From Octopus vulgaris (taxonomy: Eukaryota), in contig OX597819.1 of NCBI GenBank assembly GCA_951406725.2, positions 33,914,001-33,978,000 of the forward strand: DNA of 64,000 nucleotides. The letters are read 5' to 3'. Each line of letters starts with the position of its first letter. The stretch's first letter is position 1. A model generated the notes under the pieces. That model did no database searches and had not been told where the DNA came from. It worked only from the letters and a program-made list of their open reading frames with translations. Both the position numbers and the translations under genes were made by a program. This document shows, piece by piece, positions 6,431-64,000 of the stretch.

Positions 6431-6494
6431 TAAGTTATTTTTTTATTAAACATAACTAGCCCAGGAACCTTTTGAAACCACCTCGTATATCATC

Positions 6495-7025
6495 AGCATC
6501 ATCATCATTTAATGTCCACTTTTTCATGATTTCACAAATCAGAGAGCATTTGCTGAGGCAGATTTTTCTACATCCAGATGTCCTTGTTGACAACCTTAAC
6601 TTGTTCCTGGGCAAGGTAATATTTTTCCCATAACTAAACAGGTTTTCTGCAGAAGACTGGAAACAAACAACCTTGCTTGTAAGGTGATGATGCTCATTTA
6701 TAATCATCATGTGATGTCTAGAAAAGAGTATACATGCACACGCACACAGACACACGCACACACACACACATGCGCGCGTGCACACACACGCACACACACA
6801 CACACATACACACACATATACAATTATGAATTAAAAGCTGTGCTAGTGATGTAAACACTATCAACTGCACATAATGTATGTGGTTTTTTGCTTGTTTGCT
6901 GCAGTTTGCCAACGTGAGGATGACTCCCTCAAAGTGCTGGGAGTTAAAACACCTGAAAGTCAAACACAGATGAGACTTTCACCCCTAGATGGGTTTCTTT
7001 CAGTTTCTGTTTACTAAATCTGCTC
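6495..7025 (-). mobile_element. RTE-tailed SINE (family A head with alternative body)
   Basis: Reverse complement of the body and tail seen at 16825-17265 and 48560-48990, ending in (TGA)n. Confidence 0.65.
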
Positions 7026-13401: not shown

Positions 13402-13760
13402 CATCATCATCATTATCATCCTCATCATTTAACCTCTGTCTTCCATGCTGGCATGAGTCGGACAGTTTGACTGAAAACTGGTAAGCTGGAGAGCTGCACC
13501 AGGTTCTGATCTGATTTGGCAAGGTTTCTACAGCTGGATGCCCTTCCTAACACCAACCACTCTGAAAGTGTAGTGGATGTTTTTTATGTGCTACCAACAT
13601 GGGTGACATTGACCTGACACCGACATTGGCCATGACTACAGTCTCACATGGCTTGATAGTTCTACACAGGACAATATATTGCCAAAGGTCTCGGTCACCT
13701 GACACTGCCACCATGAAGCCCAATGCTCAAATGGTACTTTTACGTGCCACTGGCATCAGC
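13402..13760 (-). mobile_element. RTE 3'-UTR fragment
   Basis: (CAT)n, then ttccatgctggcatg...ggatgcccttcctaacaccaaccactc. Homologous to 60193-60400. Confidence 0.8.
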
Positions 13761-14291
13761 CACATGATATATGGAGAAACCAGGTGTACTGTATACCAAC
13801 CCCTTTTTAATCTTTTTAACACACACACACATAGAGGATTATGACTTGCAGCCTAGAACTAAGAGAAAAATGCTTTGAAAGAGAAGAATTTTTCTGTAAA
13901 CATTTGAATTTGACAATCCATAAATTATCTTGTGATAAATAATTCTATCTGAAGAGAATTAGAAACATAAACAAAAAAGAAAAAAAAAAAACGTGGCTAA
14001 ACAAATGACCTTGATTTTATGAAATTGGTGGCACCTGTCAGTGAGATGGTGGGGAAAGACATTTATATTTTCCCAAATAAATCAGTATTTATTCTTGATA
14101 TCTGTGCAAATCAAGGGACCTGTCTTGAAACATGACAAAACAGTCACAGTGGACTTAAACTGCCAATCTGATCTGTAAGTTAAATTGATATTCCACTCAA
14201 CCATTTCATTTGAACAAGGACCCAGTGAGTCTAATATAGATTGTTGATGTGTTGTGGTTTGAAGTGACATATATAACACACATCAATCAGC

Positions 14292-15894: not shown

Positions 15895-16717
15895 GGATCT
15901 TTACCTTTTGACCTACAGATTTAAAAAATAATTTTTTGTAACTAAACACTTTCGAACTTCGGACACTAGTAGAATGTGTCATATAAAACATCTTTTATTT
16001 ACTCTTAGCATTTTTGAGGAAAACTTATATTTACGAAGTTATTTCACGTTAAAGTTCTCGTATTTCAGCAATTTAAACCAATCAATGATGTGTATTCAGC
16101 TGAATAAAATTACTGCTGTTGTTTGTCAACAACGTCTATCAGTGGTGTATTTTTCGTTTATCACTGTTATTTATGACATTGTTTGTGCGTTTGTAGTGGC
16201 TTTAAGGTTTTATGGTCAGGGTTTTAGGGTTAGGGTTAGGGTTTTAGGGTTAGAGTTAGGGTTAAGGTTTTAGGGTTAGGGTTTTAGGGTTAGGGTTAGC
16301 ATTAGGGTTTTAGGGTTACAGTTAGGGTTAAGGTTTTAGGGTTAGGGTTTTAGGGTTAGGGTTTTAGGGTTAGGGTTTAAGAGTTAAGGTTAGGGTTAAG
16401 CTTTTAGGGTTAGGTTTAGGATTTTTAGAGTTAGGGTTGTCATAAATAACAGTGACATACGAAATATACACCCCCAGAAGTTCTTGTTGACAAACAACAG
16501 CAGTAATTTTATTCAGCTGAATACACATCACTGATTGGTTGAAATTACCGAAATACGAGAACTTTAACGAGAAATAACTTCGTAAATATAAGTTTTTCTC
16601 AAAAATGCTAAGAGTAAAAGATGTTTTATATGACACATTCTACCAGTATCCAAAGTTTGAAAGTGTTTAGTTACAAAAAATTATTTTTTAAATCTGTAGC
16701 TCAAAAGGTAAAGATCT
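15895..16717. mobile_element. Long-TIR (foldback/MULE-like) non-autonomous DNA transposon with a telomere-like core
   Basis: About 280-bp imperfect TIRs (15895-16178 and 16438-16717) beginning GGATCTTTACCTTTTGA. 8-bp TSD ACAAATTT at 15887-15894 and 16718-16725. Confidence 0.85.
16201..16438 (+). repeat. Interstitial telomere-like repeat (TTAGGG/TTTTAGGG variants)
   Basis: Directly visible ttagggttagggttttagggttagagttaggg array. Confidence 0.95.
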
Positions 16718-16824: not shown

Positions 16825-17270
16825 AGCAGTTAAGAAGCTTGCTTGCCAACCACGTGGTGTTCCATTGCATGGCACCTTGGGCATGTGCCTTCAATTATAA
16901 CCCTGTACTGACCAAAGCCTTGTGAGTGTATTTTGTAAATGAAAACTGAAAGAAACTCGTTGTGTGTGTATATACGTGCGTGCATGTGTGCACTAATGTA
17001 CGTTCGTGTGTATCCAAGTCTTGACATCATGTGATGGGTTTTAAACAAGCATCACTGTCATAGAAGTGGTGATGTCATTCATTTCCAGCCTTCTGTGGAA
17101 AACATGTCTGTCAACAGAAAAATATTGCATTGCTTGGAAACAGATGATGGTTGATGACAGGATGAGCATCCAACCATAGAAAATTTACCTCAACAAATTC
17201 TGCATAACCCATGCAAGCATGACAAAGTGAAGGATGATGATAATAATACTGATGATGATGATGATGATGG
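16825..17270 (+). mobile_element. RTE-tailed SINE
   Basis: SINE A head followed by a body ending acccatgcaagcatg...(GAT)n, like the RTE tail. Confidence 0.75.
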
Positions 17271-19491: not shown

Positions 19492-19865
19492 TCGAATCAT
19501 GGCCGATGCCAGCGCCACCTCAACTGGCTTCCGTGCCGGTGGCACGTAAAAAGCACCATCCGAATCGTGGCCGAAACCAGTGCCGCCTCGACTGGCTTCC
19601 GTGCCGGTGGCACGTAAAATGCACCAATCCGTCCGTGGCCATTGCCAGCCTCGCCTGGCACCTGTGCGGGTGGCACGTAAAAAGCACCCACTACACTCAC
19701 GGAGTGGTTGGCGTTAGGAAGGGCATCCAGCTGTAGAAACATTGCCAGATAAGACTGGAGCCTGGTGTAGCCTTCTGGCTTCCCAGATCCCCAGTCGAAC
19801 CATCCAACCCATGCTAGCATGGAAAACGGACGTTAAACGATGATGATGATGATGATGATGATGAT
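19492..19865 (+). mobile_element. Young RTE 3'-UTR fragment with three hairpin+pseudoknot units
   Basis: CpG-rich, three gtgc(c/g)ggtggcacgtaaaa(a/t)gcacc units, tail ccaacccatgctagcatggaaaacggacgttaaac(GAT)n. Confidence 0.9.
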
Positions 19866-28918: not shown

Positions 28919-28957
<39 letters not shown>

Positions 28958-29046
28958 TTAATATCTATTTTCCATGCTGGCATCGGTTGGACAGTTTGAC
29001 AGGATCTGGCCAGTTGGAGAGATTCCCAGGCTCCATTTGTCTGTTT

Positions 29047-29344
29047 TGTTCCTTCTTGAGCCATCCATGGCTCATAATGGCCAGTTTCTCAGTTTCATTG
29101 GCGTATAGGTTCCCCACCTGGATGGGACGCCGGTTCGTCGCAGGTGAGCTGCAAGATGCAGGAGGAAAGAGTGAGAGAAAGTTGTGGTGAAAGAGTCAGC
29201 AGAAGTTCGCAATTACTTTCTGCCGGAGCCGTGTGGAGCATAGGTGTTTCGCTCATAAACACACACATCGCCCGGTCTGAGATTCAAACCCATGATTCCT
29301 TGACTGCGAGTTCGTTGCACTAACCACTAGGCCATGTGCCTCCG
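29047..29344 (-). mobile_element. SINE family B nested in an RTE tail fragment (28920-29432), 13-bp TSD
   Basis: TSD catttgtctgttt at 29034-29046 and 29345-29357. tRNA-like head ggaggcacatggcctagtggttag. Confidence 0.85.
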
Positions 29345-30695
29345 CATTTGTCTGTTTGGTATGGTTTCTACAGCAGGATGTCCTTCTTAATACCAACCAC
29401 TTTACAGAGTGTGTTGGGTGCTTTTTATGTGACAAAGTAGTAGTTATTGTTGTCTGACCCCTGGGTGAGGTTCAGGAAACCATTCTTCAAACACAGTCCA
29501 GTTTTGACCATCTTACATCTAAGATTACATCACACATAATTAACTAGGGTGAAATATAAGGGAGATATGTCTCTGTTTGATACATGCAGGAACTTAATCC
29601 AATTTGTCCTTGTTTAAGGTGATCATGGTGGGATGTCTGTCACCATAGGTCTCCTGGATGAAGGTTGACTAGAGCTAAACAATAACAAGCATAAATGCCA
29701 CCACAAAGGTAGAGATAAAAAATATATAATTTACAATTAAAGAGAAAATTTATAACTTCTTATCTGTTCATTTTAGTGTGTGTGTGTGAGTGTGTGTGTG
29801 TGTGTGTGTGTGCGTGCGCGTGTGTGTGTGCGCGCGCGTGTGTGTGTGCGTGTGTGTGTGCGTGCATGCATACATGCATGTGTGTGTGTGTGTGTAGTGC
29901 ATTTCTGCTCTCACTGTAAATAAAGAAATAATTATTGTTTACATCAAATAACTACTAGCATTTCTGCCACTACTAATATTACTATAAACACTACTAAAAC
30001 TACAATTACTATGAATATTATCACTACTACTATTACTACTACTAAAACTACTAGTATTGTTGTTGTTCTTGTAACTGCTAAATCCAATACTTATCAATGA
30101 CTTCAAACATTACCTTGAAAGAAGAATTGAGAAAAATATGCTCAATGTTTCTTAGTATATTTATACATGCAGAATTTCATATGCCTTAAATAACAAACTT
30201 TATCAGTAATAAATATATCAGTATGTGGTTTATAACCTACACCTCTCTTCCAATAATACTAACTTAAACAGCTTATCTAAAGGATTAAAGTAGATTTAAT
30301 TAACAATGATTTTCTCATCATTAAACTGTATCAAAAACAGTCTAAGGAAAAGGCTGAAGTTTTCACTGGTAATAGTTTTTTTATAACAGCATTTTATTGC
30401 ATTATATTATCAAAATCTTTATTATCTCTCCAGTAAATTGGCTGAAGGAAATCGAATTAAAGAAGATAATGCTATTATTTTGCTTTTGTCTTTATCCATA
30501 CACAAGTTTATTCACTTAATCAGTGACAGTGAAATAAGTACTTCTGTGCCCAATGCAGAATTAACTTTTGAATAATTCAATTAAGCATTTAATTTGTTAC
30601 ATTTTTCTTTTTAAATTTACACCTGGTTATAACTGACCAGTATAGTTGATGTTAAGACACACAATGTCTTTCATTAACAGATTTCTGCTCACCCC

Positions 30696-42134: not shown

Positions 42135-42316
42135 TACATCATCATCATCATCCGCTTTCCATGCTAGCATGGGTTGGACAGTTCAACTGGGGTCTGGGAA
42201 GCCAGAAGGCTGAACCAGGCCCAGTCTGATCTGGCAATCTTTCTATGGCTGGATGTCCTTCCTAACGCCAACCACTCCGTGAGTGTAGTGGGTGCTTTTT
42301 ACGTGCCACCGGCACA
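42135..42316 (-). mobile_element. RTE 3'-UTR fragment
   Basis: Closely similar to 60193-60385, with one pseudoknot unit at 42291-42316. Confidence 0.88.
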
Positions 42317-42994
42317 GTGTGCCACCAGATTTGGTATACATATATATATAATACACACACACATACACATATATATACTGTTGTTATTATGAAAAAGTGC
42401 TTTAAGTCCAAAACGTTGCTTTTTCAGAAAATGTAAAAAATAGTTTCACCATTCCATAGCAAAACCACTCTACTACAGATTATTTTTTGATAATTTTTGA
42501 TAACTTTTTGATAACTTGACATCTGAAGCAGCTGGAGATATAATAGCCTGACCAAGAGAACCAGCTATTGCAAGCAAAAATGAATACTGAAATAAACGCA
42601 CTGGGCCAAATGATATATGACAGTTTAACATAATAGCAATGACATACATATGTATGTATGTACACATAAACACAAATACATGTATGTATATATATTCGTG
42701 TAACATCGTCTATTTTTCTGTCCTTGTTTCGTATACATTCGATCCTTTTTCCAAGAAATCTAATGCTCGTAGCTAGGTTTTTCCTTGGGGCTGGCCAGAT
42801 CGGAGCAATCTCAAGATTAATCAGCCAAAATTGTGAGGATGATCCAGTTCTTGACTGAAGATTAGAGGCTTCAAATGACCTGTCCGTTTTTTGTATCGTC
42901 TATTTGAATGTTTTGCGTTCTTGTCCCATTTTGTATTTTTATATATATTTTTTATACATATATATATATATAATAATAATAAAAAAAATAACTG

Positions 42995-45289: not shown

Positions 45290-45820
45290 CTGTGGCCAGG
45301 ACCAGTGACACATATGAGGCACTCATGCCAGTGATACAGGTACCTATGCTGGTGACATGAGTGAGGCACCTTTGCCAGTGACATGTATGAAATACCTGTG
45401 CTGGTGACACGGGTGAGGCACCCATGCTAGTGACACAGGTGAGGCACCCATGCTGGTGACACATATGAGGTACCTGTGCTGGTGACACAAGTGAAGGACT
45501 CATGATGGTGTCACAGGTGAGGTACCTGCACTGGCAACACATGTGAGGTCTCACATGTGAAGCACCTGTGCCAGTGACATGTGTGAGGCACCAGTGCTGG
45601 TGATATGTGTGATGCAGTTATGCTAGTGACACATGTGAGGCACTCATGCTGGTGACATGTAAAAGGCACCTGTGCTGGTAACATATAAAAGGCTCCCACA
45701 ACATTCTGTGGAGTGGTTGGCATTAGGAAGAGCAAAAACAGACTGAAGCTTGGTACAGCTCTCTGGTTTACCAGTTCCAGTCAAGCCATCTAAACCATAT
45801 CAGAATGGAAAAAGGAATGC
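45290..45820 (+). mobile_element. RTE 3'-UTR fragment expanded into a ~25-bp minisatellite
   Basis: About 16 units of gaggcacc(t/c)(g/a)tgctggtgacacatgt, running into ggagtggttggcattaggaagagc. Confidence 0.8.
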
Positions 45821-48559: not shown

Positions 48560-48992
48560 GCTTCTTGACCACATAGTTTCAGCATGGCACCTTGGACAAG
48601 TATCTTCTATTGTAGCCCAGAGTTGACTAATGCCTCGTGAGCTGATTTTGGAGACAAAAACTGAATGAAGCTTGTGTGTGTGTGTGTGTGTGCACGTGTG
48701 TGTATGTGCACATGCACGTGAATGTGTGTGTGTATGCATGCGCATGTATATTGCCTTGTCTAGACGTTGCATGACAGTTATAAATGAGTGTCACTGTCAT
48801 ACAAGCAATGTCATTAATTTCCAATATTCTGTAGAAACATGTCTGGCAATGAGGAAATATTACTTTGCATGGAAACAGATAAGGGCTGGTAAGAGGAAGG
48901 GCATTTGGCTGTAGAAAATCTGCCACAGTAAACTCCATCCAGTCCATACAAGCATTGATGAGAGGACATTAAAATGATGAGTAAGATGATGA
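48560..48992 (+). mobile_element. RTE-tailed SINE
   Basis: SINE A head plus a body ending ggaagggcatttggctgtagaaaatctgcc...(GAT)n. Confidence 0.78.
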
Positions 48993-58071: not shown

Positions 58072-58344
58072 TCATCATCATCATCATATCATCATCATCA
58101 TCATCACTAATCATCTGTTCTCCATGCTGGCATAGGCTGAACTGTTTGACAAGAGCTGGCCCAGGCTCCATTTTGTCTATTTTGGCTTCGTTTCTATGGC
58201 CAAATGCCCTTCCTAATGCCAACCACTTTACAGGGTGCACTGAATGCTTTTAACGTGGTGCTGGCATGGATGCTTTTATGTGGCATTGGCACAGCCACTT
58301 TTATATGTCACAGGCACAAGTACTTTTATGTGGCACCAGTATGG

Positions 58345-60195: not shown

Positions 60196-60359
60196 TCATC
60201 ATCATCATCATCATTTAGCGTCCGTTTTCCATGCTAGCATGGGTTGGACGGTTCAACTGGGGTCTGGGGAGCCCGAAGGCTGCACCAGGCCAGTCAGATC
60301 TGGCAGTGTTTCTACAGCTGGATGCCCTTCCTAACGCCAACCACTCCGAGAGTGTAGTG

Positions 60360-62655
60360 GGTGATTTTATGTGCCACCGACACAGGTGCCAGACGAGGCT
60401 GGCGAACGGCCACGCTCGGATGGTGTTTTTATGTGCCACCGACACAGGTGCCAGACGAGGCTGGCAGACGGCCACGCTCGGATGGTGTTTTTATGTGCCA
60501 CCGACACAGGTGCCAGATGAGGCTGGCGGACGGCCACGATCGGATGGTGTTTGTTACGTCCCCAAAGCACGTAGTCCAGTCTATGCGGTACTGGCTACGG
60601 CCACGTTCGGATGATTTTCTTGTGTGCCACCGGCACTGTCCACAAAGATACAAATTCCATTGATGTTCATCTATTTTGATTTGTTTTGATTTGATTTGAT
60701 TTTCACTTGCCTCAACAGGTCTTCACAAGTGTCACAAGAAGGAAGGTATGCACAGGTGGACTGACTACGTCCCAGGTAGGGTCCACGGGTTATGGCCTGA
60801 CTAGTCTTGCCGGGTCTTCGGATGGTGTTTTTATGTGCCACCGACACAGGTGCCAGATGAGGCTGGCGAACGGCCACGATCGGATGGTGTTTGTTGCGTG
60901 CCCACAGCACGGAGGCCAGTCGATGCAGTACTGGCTACGGCCACGTTCGGATGGTTTTCTTGTGTGCCACTGGCACTGGTACCACAAGATACAAATTCCA
61001 TTGATGTTCATCTATTTTGATTTGATTTGATTTGATTTGATTTTCACTTGCCTCAACAGGTCTTCACAAGTGTCACAAGAAGGAAGGAAGGTATGCACAG
61101 GTGGACTGACTACGTCCCAAGTAGGGGCCATGGGTTATGGCCTGACTAGTCTTGCCGGGTCTTCGGTTGGTGTTTTTATGTGCCACCGACACAGGTGCCA
61201 GATGAGGCTGGCGGACGGCCACGATCGGATGGTGTTTGTTATGTGCCCACATCACAGAGGCCAGTCGATGCGGTACTGGCTACGGCCACGTTCGGATGGT
61301 TTTCTTGTGTGCCACCGGTACTGGTACCACAAAGATACAAATTCCATTGATGTTCATCTATTTTGATTTGGTTTGATTTGATTTGATTTGATTTTGATTT
61401 TGATTTTCACTTGCCTCAACATGTCTTCACAAGTGTCATAAGTAGGAAGGTATGCACAGGTGGACTGACTACGTCGCCGGGTCTTCGGATGGTGTTTTTA
61501 TGTGCCACCGACACAGGTGCCAGATGAGGCTGGCGAACGGCCACGATCGGATGGTTTTCTTGTGTGCCACCGGTACTGGAACCACAAAGATACAAATTCC
61601 ATTGATGTTCATCTATTTTGATTTGGTTTGATTTTCACTTGCCTCAACAGGTCTTCACAAGTTTGGTTTGATTTTCACTTGCCTCAACAGGTCTTCACAA
61701 GTGTCACACGTGTCACACACTTGCCTCAACACGTCTCCACAAGTGTCACACACTTGCCTCTGCCTCAACAGGTCTTCACAAAGTGTCACACACTTGCCTC
61801 TGCCTCAACAGGTCTTCACAAGTGTCACACACTTGCCTCAACAGGTCTTCACAAGTGTCATAAGAGGGAAGGTATGCACAGGTGGACTGACTACGTCGCC
61901 GGGTCTTCGGATGGTGTTTTTATGTGCCACCGACACAGGTGCCAGATGAGGCTGGCGAACGGCCACGATCAGATGGAGTTTGTTGTGCCCACAGCACGGA
62001 GGCCAGTCGATGCGGTACTGGCTACGGCCACGTTCGGATGGTTTTCTTGTGTGCCACCGGTACTGGAACCACAAAGATACAAATTCCATTGATGTTCATC
62101 TATTTTGATTTGGTTTGATTTGATTTTTGATTTTCACTTGCCTCAACAGGTCTTCACAAGGGTCACACACTTGCCTCAACAGGTCTCCACAAGTGTCACA
62201 CACTTGCCTCTGCCTCAACAGGTCTTCACAAGTGTCACACACTTGCCTCAACAGGTCTTCACAAGTGTCATAAGAGGGAAGGTATGCACAGGTGGACTGA
62301 CTACGTCGCCGGGTCTTCGGATGGTGTCTTTATGTGCCACCGACACAGGTGCCAGATGAGGCTGGCGAACGGCCACGATCGGATGGTGTTTGTTGTGCCC
62401 ACAGCACGGAGGCCAGTCGATGCGGTACTGGCTACAGCCACGTTTGGGTGGTTTTCTTGTGTGCCACCGGCACTGGTACCACAAAGAATACAATTCCACT
62501 GATGTTCATCTATTTTGATTTGTTTTGATTTGATTTGATTTTCACTTGCCTCAACAGGTCTTCATAAGTGTCACAAGAAGGAAGGTATGCACAGGAGGAC
62601 TGACTACGTCCCAGGTAGGGGCCACGGGTTATGGCCTGACTAGTCTTGCCGGGTC
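60360..62655 (-). repeat. Hierarchical tandem array forming the LINE 3' UTR
   Basis: 62-nt subunits (60371, 60433, 60495) and about six 330-430-nt superunits delimited by gccgggtcttc, each containing (ATTTG)n and cacttgcctcaacaggtcttcacaagtg. Confidence 0.9.
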
Positions 62656-64000
62656 TTCTCACGCACAGCATACTTCCATAGGTCTCGGTCTCTAGACATT
62701 TCCTTAGTGAGACCTAAAGTTCGAAGGTCGTGCTTCACCACCTCGTCCCAGGTTTTCCTGGGTCTACCTCTTCCACAGGTTCCCTCAACTGCTAGGGTGT
62801 AGCACTTTTGCACACAACTATCTTCAGCCTTTCTCGTCACATGACCATACCAGCGCAGCCGTCTCTCTTGCACACCACAACTGACGCTTCTTAGGTTCAA
62901 CTTTTCTCTCAAGGAACTTACACTCTGACGATTATGAACACTGACATTACACATCCATCGGAGCATACTGGCTTCATTTCTTGCGAGCTTACGCATATCC
63001 TCAGCAGTCACGGCCCATGTTTCACTACCATGTAGCATGGCTGTACGTACACATGCATCATACAGTCTGCCTTTTACTCTGAGCGAGAGGCCTTTTGTCA
63101 CCAGCAGGGGTAAGAGCTCTCTAAACTTTGCCCAGGCTATTCTTACTCTAGCAGTTACACTTTCAGCACACCCACCCCCGCTACTGACTTGGTCTCCTAG
63201 GTAGCGGAAGCTATCAACTACTTCTAGTTTGTCTCCCTGGAACGTGGCAGAAGTTGGTCTCTGCACATTTCCAGTGTTTATTGCTCCTGAGCATTTGCCA
63301 CAGACAAAAACTATTTTCCTAGTTAGCCTTCCTTTGACATTGCTGCACCTCTTATGTGTCCATAGCTTACACTTGGTGCATCTTATAGAGTTTCTACCTA
63401 CACCTTTTTTACAGATCGAGCAGGGCCATCTACCTGAAGGCGTTTGTGATTGATCTACCTTCCTACTTATTAGGACTTTGGTTTTGGCTAGGTTGATTCT
63501 AAGGCCCTTCGATTCTAACCTTGTTTCCACACCTGAAACTTCTCCTCCAGTTCTGATAGTGACTCAGCAATTAGAGCAAGGTCATCAGCATAGAGGAGCT
63601 CCCAGGGGCAACCTGTCTTGAATTCCTCCGTTATTGCCTGGAGGACTATGATAAATAGGAGGGGACTGAGGACTGAACCTTGGTGGACCCCAACCTCTAC
63701 CCGGAATTCTTCACTGTACTCGTTGCCAACCCTCACCTTACTAGCAGCGTCTCTGTACATAGCTTGCACAGCTCTCACCAACCATTCTTCTATCCCTAGT
63801 TTCCTCATTGACCACCAGATAAGGGATCGGGGGACCCTGTCAAAGGCTTTCTCCAAGTCAACAAAAGCCAGGTACAAGGGCTTATCTTTGGCTAGGTATT
63901 TCTCCTGCAGCTGTCTTACCAGGAATATAGCATCAGTAGTACTTTTCCCTGGCACGAACCCAAACTGCATATCATCTAAGCTAACTCTCTCTCTAATTAG
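62640..64000 (-). pseudogene. RTE LINE reverse transcriptase with a PHD-like finger and one frameshift at about 63518
   Basis: QFGF..GKSTTDAIF, FVDLEKAFDRV, GVHQGSVLSPLLF, YADD, FRYLG, RRLRWYGHV, GRGRPRKTW. WKQG/LESKGL are joined if one T is restored. Confidence 0.92.

Follow-up and report, generated by a model that had tools for sequence, protein, structure and literature searches.

A predicted compact pseudoknot in the 3' array of an octopus RTE-type LINE and its counterparts in RTE 5' untranslated regions of other animals

Described systems and the octopus locus

A stretch of 64,000 nucleotides from Octopus vulgaris (GenBank assembly GCA_951406725.2, contig OX597819.1, positions 33,914,001 to 33,978,000 of the forward strand; hereafter the window) was analysed for a long interspersed element (LINE) at its edge, probably of the RTE type, whose 3' region holds a tandem array of small modules, each composed of a hairpin and a predicted compact pseudoknot (the knot). 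Bipartite RTE units were described by Kojima 2018 (PMC5786205), and in these, as in the octopus, a piece of 5' untranslated region (UTR) is joined to an RTE 3' tail. Those units are free-standing and lack an open reading frame (ORF), whereas the octopus unit is fused to the end of an ORF, was duplicated along with it and comprises 19 repeats. Two copies of the conserved domain are noted in AviRTE 5' UTRs in the same paper, in whose main text, as far as examined, no fold is proposed for the domain.

In avian and turtle R2 elements, a 3' UTR pseudoknot is bound by the element's own protein, including its zinc finger, insertion depends on it, and compensatory mutants restore insertion (PMC12180492). 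As in the octopus, this pseudoknot lies near the 3' end of the RNA of a retrotransposon without long terminal repeats, and a LINE 3' UTR pseudoknot is therefore not a new kind of thing. R2 belongs to a different clade; its pseudoknot is present once and is confined to the final 65 nt, while that of the octopus stops ~145 nt short of the microsatellite. For the L2-clade elements ZfL2-1 and ZfL2-2, strict recognition of a stem-loop in the 3' tail RNA by the LINE protein was reported (PMC4176376); this is a simple stem-loop, and its octopus equivalent would be the CCAUGCUAGCAUGG tail hairpin and not the knot. Structured RNA is also found in RTE 5' UTRs as ribozymes, such as HDV-like ones and the twister in the 5' end of Perere-3 (PMC8501958), but no catalytic core was found in the octopus module. 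RTE-2_OV of Octopus vulgaris (PMC9115989), compared by description only, is likewise an octopus RTE with a single endonuclease-reverse transcriptase (RT) ORF; its 3' UTR is mostly microsatellite from the ORF end and it carries a C2H2 finger, and the two elements probably belong to different families. Bipartite RTE units, duplicated 5' UTR domains and LINE 3' UTR pseudoknots are thus each already known singly.

The frameshift pseudoknots of luteoviruses and their like (beet western yellows virus, BWYV; pea enation mosaic virus 1, PEMV-1; potato leafroll virus, PLRV; sugarcane yellow leaf virus, ScYLV) have a 5-bp stem 1 (S1), a short loop 1 (L1) and an A-rich loop 3 (L3). Loop-stem tertiary contacts were described for knots of this type (PMC6007934). 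The octopus module is like them in shape only, being without a slippery site and outside any ORF, and L1 is U in two of the relatives described below (L029 and L016) and in one of the octopus module types (m2), unlike in the luteoviral knots.

No description of the fold, the motif or the array was found in the literature searched, which took in passages of three octopus repeat papers (PMC9115989, PMC13282606, PMC8967140), with subscription papers, Repbase and Figure S4 of Kojima 2018 outside that search. The GGAAGGGC motif had 0 matches in the supplement text of Kojima 2018, in which Figure S4 is a picture (PMC5786205).

The module in RTE 5' UTRs of other animals

The repeated module was found as described in a preceding sequence-only reading of this DNA: a GCCAG/CUGGC hairpin is followed by UGUGU-C-GGUG-GCACA-L3-CACC, in which S1, L1, stem 2 (S2) and L3 can be recognised. 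The last copy and the sequence downstream of it comprise the following features.

60360..60384, minus strand: terminal predicted pseudoknot of module type m3 (S1 5 bp, L1 C, S2 4 bp, L3 6 nt)
60341..60359, minus strand: linker with a small predicted hairpin, CACUC/GAGUG
60302..60342, minus strand: GGAAGGGCAUC motif, with a predicted 6-bp stem and a possible second knot
60215..60250, minus strand: true 3' tail of the RTE lineage, reading the 11-residue C-terminus of P0002
60193..60214, minus strand: (GAT)n terminal microsatellite, from the sequence

The motif, which reads TTGGCGTTAGGAAGGGCATC, was used to scan public data, giving at least 120 metagenome loci and 14 genome-bin loci (134 loci, L001-L134). 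About eight of the 134 look by eye like bacterial chance matches and were kept in all counts. Among the matches listed, the motif lies 29-38 nt upstream of an RTE ATG in six of 120 metagenome loci, and it is therefore read as a 5' UTR element; an endonuclease domain was confirmed for L029 and L080. A tail-like pattern follows the motif in nine of 117 loci, against one of 134 upstream controls, among the matches listed, and this succession of motif and RTE tail is the bipartite layout of Kojima 2018 (PMC5786205).

In two other animal families, the octopus module occurs as a single copy at a like distance before the conserved motif in the 5' UTR of RTE-type LINEs. The knot of L029 reads CGAGA-T-GGTG-TCTCG-GTAAAAA-CACT and ends 17 nt before the motif, and that of L016 reads GAGA-T-GGTG-TCTC-GATAAAAA-TACC and ends 20 nt before it. 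The linker from knot end to motif is 17-21 nt long in the relatives (L029, L016, L009 and L021) and 19 nt in the window. When the 134 loci listed were ranked by likeness to the octopus knot, L029 came first and L016 joint second. Six substitutions separate the octopus knot from that of L029: four make up two paired transversions in S1 (U-A to A-U and C-G to A-U), one changes a pair to G-U and one falls in L1. When six changes were placed at random, the nine pairs survived along with two doubles of this kind in 0.16% of trials; this test was framed post hoc. The compensatory S1 transversions between the octopus and the RTE 5' UTRs of other animals, evidence to which the sequence-only reading had no access, lend support to the fold.

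Seven window copies and four loci, of which L009, L016 and L021 are one family, were joined in an alignment (A1). In total, 89.3% of its cells pair, a value reached by 0 of 500 shuffles, with slid controls at 33-42%. Of five measures taken on this alignment, two were not above chance: pairs with two-sided changes (356 of 500 shuffles reached the observed value) and 'further pair types' (344 of 500). For S2, 84% of cells pair, and its complement is kept after an A-rich linker of 6-8 nt in three lineages. Alignments of octopus units with the L016 family and with L029 extend over 80 nt (p 0.0025-0.046); the likeness of the octopus hairpin to the domain of Kojima 2018, which is roughly 70 nt long and corresponds to the 3' half of Ceph, is modest. 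By eye, the stretch directly before the knot in L016, L009 and L021 matches this conserved domain (PMC5786205), and at the end of the domain a related knot can be sketched whose S1 shows an A-U/G-C swap between listed RTE families. The domain had no match in Rfam and is a candidate for a new family of RNA. For the octopus module, the fold is likely both real and of old origin, and the predicted pseudoknot as such is probably real.

Further observations were made on these 5' UTRs. Read by eye, the published alignments appear to show a long covarying outer helix around the GCC/GGC hairpin of the RTE 5' UTR domain, here L016:960-1035 (plus strand) and L009:1405-1490 (minus strand). The GGAAGGGCAUC motif, too, may fold as a pseudoknot, the second one here: its 6-bp stem is paired in 100% of A1 cells, and GC(Y) past the A-rich linker could pair with the motif loop. 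This pattern was present in 47 of 107 distinct loci among the matches listed, with families uncollapsed, against a shuffle mean of 23 and a maximum of 36. In other RTE 5' UTRs, those of L080 and L038, a different predicted H-type knot (S1 4-7 bp, S2 6 bp), followed by a GTCG/CGAC hairpin, takes the same slot 37-67 nt upstream of the motif. In L119:317-395 (minus strand), a twister-P1-like match (45.8 bits, E 3e-7, below gathering) overlaps the motif start with its 3' end. L121, L126, L128 and L131 are bacterial genome-bin contigs with the animal-type RTE motif, three of them also with the tail, and are likely contamination. The motif was also considered as the Vhc block of V-SINEs (short interspersed elements; Matetovici 2016, PMC4758252) and this was rejected, with 0 motif matches in supplement file 4 of that paper, where the Vhc SINEs listed have a different common block.

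The array and other copies in the window

Exactly 14 GTGCCAC cores lie in 60360-62480, the number given in the sequence-only reading, but they belong to two module types (eight in m3 and six in m1). With five m2 modules, which have no exact core, there are 19 modules, spread over six macro-units (322-422 nt) and two extra 62-nt units.

62319..62658, minus strand: macro-unit 1 (340 nt), with ORF end, spacer, AAATC repeat, m1, m2 and m3
61909..62318, minus strand: macro-unit 2 (410 nt), with 33/40-nt sub-repeats, m1, m2 and m3
61487..61908, minus strand: macro-unit 3 (422 nt), with m1 and m3 and without m2
61165..61486, minus strand: macro-unit 4 (322 nt), with m1, m2 and m3
60820..61164, minus strand: macro-unit 5 (345 nt), with the sole m2 that has a full S1 (60911)
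60481..60819, minus strand: macro-unit 6 (339 nt), with m1, m2 and m3
60360..60480, minus strand: two extra 62-nt units (hairpin and m3 knot), family D2 (Tandem Repeats Finder, TRF: period 62, 3.1 copies, 95% matches)
60446, 60508, 60848, 61193, 61515, 61937 and 62347, minus strand: starts of the other m3 copies

Each macro-unit begins with the last ORF codons and stops ~4 bases past an m3 knot. The hairpin-plus-knot module proposed as the repeat unit is present, but the array consists mainly of these 322-422 nt blocks. Knot modules take up ~494 of its 2299 nt, so that ~79% is non-knot sequence, and the spacer, AAATC repeats and 33/40-nt sub-repeats were multiplied along with the knots.

All nine pairs of the fold (two crossing helices with short loops) are held in eight of eight m3 and three of seven dispersed modules scored. 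The full 5-bp S1 is present in 8/8 m3, 1/5 m2 and 0/6 m1 copies and is thus broken in ten of the 11 m1 and m2 copies. A strict compact-pseudoknot scan found eight sites on the sense strand of the array, none on the antisense strand and none in the ORF; as a control, a single module with its tail was dinucleotide-shuffled 600 times, and two of the shuffled sequences contained at least one site. Because the stems of the eight m3 copies are identical, these copies hold no covariation. None of their 18 stem columns is variable, against eight of 45 other columns (p 0.056); a ninth variable column was left out since it differs only where the last copy runs into other sequence, and p is 0.006 once the hairpin stems are added after the fact.

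Covariation in S1 had been read from the window itself, and this did not hold. The dispersed copy at 19532 does carry CGUGC/GCACG, but the change of the outer pair between C-G and U-A amounts to two CpG transitions and fails the CpG control set beforehand, and half-changed states occur within the window (U-G at 19663 and 42316; a C-A mismatch at 62408, 61998 and 14581). The change of the inner pair (C-G to U.G) is a one-sided wobble only. For the variant at 60911-60886, the sequence is as had been reported, but the fold is kept in only one m2 copy, with S2 of 3 bp or in a shifted register.

Other copies are dispersed over the window.

19493..19865, plus strand: copy truncated at its 5' end, in which three 68-nt units bearing knots of the CGUGC/GCACG type precede motif, tail and (GAT)n
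45304..45816, plus strand: older copy, decayed array of 26-nt knot-only units (14 scored), then motif and tail
58088..58343, minus strand: older copy, four decayed units of 25 nt that consist of the knot alone and are shifted in register (S1 4, L1 2, S2 5)
13405..13774, minus strand: older copy, ORF-end-like piece between two knot-like modules (tblastn E 0.003)
42137..42324, minus strand: dispersed copy comprising one knot, the motif and the tail

In the copy at 45304..45816, L3 is mostly no longer A-rich. Nine window loci score E <1e-7 with the model R1, seven of which were in its training set. Old SINE-like copies with an apparent motif and RTE tail end lie at 6490-6680 (minus strand), 17080-17260 (plus strand) and 48820-48990 (plus strand). 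At 28934-29434 (minus strand), a motif-plus-tail copy is split by an insertion of ~300 nt, which by eye starts with a tRNA-like stretch. An interstitial telomere-like (TTAGGG)n array of ~30 degenerate copies was seen at 16210-16438.

The LINE ORF itself runs into the window end.

63515..64000, minus strand: RT part of the LINE ORF (RVT_1, E 1.7e-22), in two overlapping frames, with the element continuing beyond the window end
62640..63563, minus strand: C-terminal stretch of the ORF, including a PHD-like finger (PF00628, E 8.9e-5) and an early stop, ...KTRQD*

Because the frame changes near 63515, the LINE copy in the window is broken (or misassembled). The closest protein match of the C-terminal part is an Octopus bimaculoides protein with 85% identity, and relatives at ~50% identity have PF03372, PF00078 and a PHD finger in one ORF of ~1050 aa. 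The layout of an apurinic/apyrimidinic endonuclease (APE) and RT in a single ORF is thus seen with the RT in the window and the endonuclease in relatives, the window element's own endonuclease being past the edge. P0002 ends in the 11-residue C-terminus where the window ORF has KTRQD* instead. The 3' microsatellite tail expected of an RTE-clade LINE is present as (GAT)n at 60214-60193. The PHD-like finger (63422-63291, minus strand; 22.9 bits, slightly below the cut-off of 24) lies between RT and C-terminus, is common to many relatives in other animals, and no description of it turned up in one search of the literature.

For the tandem junctions, public contigs were compared with 62325-62900, and junction figures were taken from 12 of 106 rows as summed contig depth, which is not copy number and reads alike for many loci and for few long arrays. 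The unit-to-unit junction has a depth of 2119 in one run (X2) and 5381 in another with a different organism label (X3), against 26-274 for the X2 and X3 pieces listed, and it is therefore multicopy. A raw-read run (X23) gave one matching read of 12.9 million and was set aside, and two metatranscriptome rows with a small share were left out. A form of the junction that skips the m3 knot has a depth of 1256 vs 2627 in X2 and 3371 vs 6410 in X3, or about one third of junction depth, among the matches listed. The main junction has a 3-nt GAA overlap four bases past the knot. Contigs with loose ends at 62645 and 62837 point to further subfamilies whose 3' ends differ. The knot stems had no variant among the 40 variant rows listed (24 more exist, and m3 lies at the edge).

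Weighing the explanations

The explanation we favour, if tentatively, is that the 3' region is a captured 5'-UTR-plus-tail unit that came to lie behind a shortened ORF and was then duplicated in tandem, with the last copy binding the element's own protein. The hairpin and predicted compact pseudoknot were likely inherited from an RTE 5' UTR, a likely source that the sequence-only reading missed. Capture may have occurred by a template switch from a non-autonomous 5'-UTR-plus-tail RNA onto the LINE RNA, and duplication by slippage or template jumping at the GAA overlap. S2 would form, making the module a pseudoknot, and the last knot copy would help the element's protein to grip the RNA, while the extra copies are likely tolerated by-products. 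A side observation concerns L016, where an RTE 3' end (553-666) lies ~380 nt upstream of another RTE's 5' UTR motif (1103-1240) in the same orientation; from such a layout, a 5' UTR could be captured behind an ORF.

A role of the knot as cis element for the RTE protein, exerted chiefly by the last copy, is likewise a tentative proposal, made by analogy with R2 and because RTE 5' UTR pieces are retained in non-coding derivatives, which would imply a cis role other than translation. Not every knot copy would be needed, since S1 is mostly broken in m1 and m2, macro-unit 3 is without m2 and knot-less junctions exist. The element's own 5' UTR lies outside the window.

Several results weigh against this explanation or parts of it. 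By sequence alone, a score like that of L029 is expected 0.06 times in the 134 loci listed. Both S1 compensations occur in L029 and also in the L016 family, possibly from a single event, and are equally compatible with a plain hairpin; S2 has no credible two-sided change in A1, showing only G-C to G-U and one cell from a decayed copy. Among the matches listed, this knot is found in only three of 120 distinct upstream regions (of six matches to a relaxed descriptor, three were AT-rich low-complexity sequence and were set aside). Nested folding of the terminal 210 nt places the last module in a competing long hairpin with the motif (z -1.0), and for a macro-unit z is -0.06. The SINE-like copies at 6.5, 17.1 and 48.9 kb apparently carry motif and tail and lack the knot, which is thus dispensable for some mobilised RNAs. 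Units of four separate lengths (26, 62, 68 and ~340 nt) all have the knot at their end, which selection would also fit.

It is unlikely, if less so than the rivals that follow, that the knot is real but acts only in the 5' UTR, in cap-independent initiation or in protecting an uncapped ribozyme-cut end, with the 3' copies as passengers. Its place in L029 and L016, where it ends ~65-80 nt upstream of the ATG, would suit such a role, as would the presence of ribozymes at RTE 5' ends whose cleaved RNAs are translated (PMC8501958, PMC6765202), the twister-like match directly before the motif in L119 (E 3e-7, below gathering) and the occurrence of motif-plus-tail copies without a knot. Against it, the knot has stayed beside the tail in both old and young octopus copies, and of the 18 stem columns in m3 none varies, compared with eight of the remaining 45 (p 0.056).

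The proposal of the sequence-only reading was that the multimer itself is selected, whether it binds the RT or a host protein through avidity or blocks nucleases by stacked knots. Amplification that stops at the knot has recurred, as units of 68, 25-26, 62 and ~340 nt show, and these four unit lengths, the multicopy macro-junction in two runs with different organism labels and the invariant m3 stems (p 0.056, or 0.006 with the hairpin stems added after the fact) all speak for it. Slippage or template jumps at a structured edge would, by inference, fit the recurrent amplification as well as selection does. Selection is hard to reconcile with an array that is ~79% non-knot sequence, co-amplified with the knots, and in which S1 is broken in 10/11 m1 and m2 copies; knot-less junctions make up ~1/3 of the depth among the matches listed, the 26-nt arrays have decayed with loss of the A-rich loop, and the single-knot copy at 42.3 kb transposed too. 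As broken and deleted knot copies exist, tolerance is favoured; the array has likely arisen as copying went along, as a by-product, the multimer's selection is not supported, and we regard a selected array as improbable.

Equally improbable is a hairpin alone, of 6 bp with a 3-nt loop (YGUGYC-GGU-GGCACR), beside which the S2 complement would be inherited and unpaired. Nested folding of the isolated modules gives this 6-bp triloop hairpin as the best structure for m3 and m2, for the dispersed copy and for L029 (-5.3 to -9.0 kcal/mol), in all of which the L1 base and junction G are C-G or U-G, as a sixth pair requires, and every credible two-sided change is located in S1. ViennaRNA scores nested folds only and cannot score knots; for L016, the nested optimum is the S2 helix. 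Stem stacking sums are about -15.5 kcal/mol for m3 and -17.7 kcal/mol for the dispersed copy, and with a pseudoknot penalty of 7-10 the modelled net energy of the pseudoknot would be roughly equal to that of the hairpin. The retention of the S2 complement after the A-rich linker in three lineages, with 84% of S2 cells pairing, argues for the pseudoknot, as does the 58-kb family, in which the junction base is C, breaking the sixth pair and lengthening S2.

Very improbable is a part in a self-cleaving ribozyme, a frameshift signal or a palindromic protein site at the DNA level: RTE 5' UTRs frequently contain ribozymes (PMC8501958, PMC6765202) and S1 is a short DNA palindrome, but Rfam yielded no ribozyme match up to E 10, either for the array or for the eight UTR loci searched, an HDV-like (hepatitis delta virus) descriptor gave 0 sites in three window stretches and one doubtful site in nine loci, neither a hammerhead core nor a twister loop was found, and the modules lie past the stop codon with no slippery heptamer within 18 nt before any m3, so that all four readings (HDV-like, hammerhead, twister, frameshift) were rejected. 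The core of a pistol ribozyme was likewise not found. Rfam searches of the array gave 19 matches to E 10, none at gathering and 16 on AT repeats, none of them relevant, and the viral contigs searched gave no match.

Why RTE 5' UTR pieces stay conserved and recur in SINEs was left open by Kojima 2018 (PMC5786205), and the LINE families that have expanded in octopus include RTE elements (PMC8967140). It is doubtful that the widely conserved RTE 5' UTR domain (half of the Ceph-SINE body) is an undescribed pseudoknot that binds the RTE protein, and that octopus RTEs transferred it to the 3' end and multiplied it repeatedly into an avidity array which contributed to the expansion. A predicted knot of 25 nt with natural variants in three lineages, together with the motif, makes the question of Kojima 2018 testable with short RNAs. 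Should the array be neutral, it would still point to tandem duplication as a recurrent event where a structured element has its 3' edge; and if the capture explanation is true, the octopus element would be a LINE that had its 3' region rebuilt with parts of its own 5' UTR.

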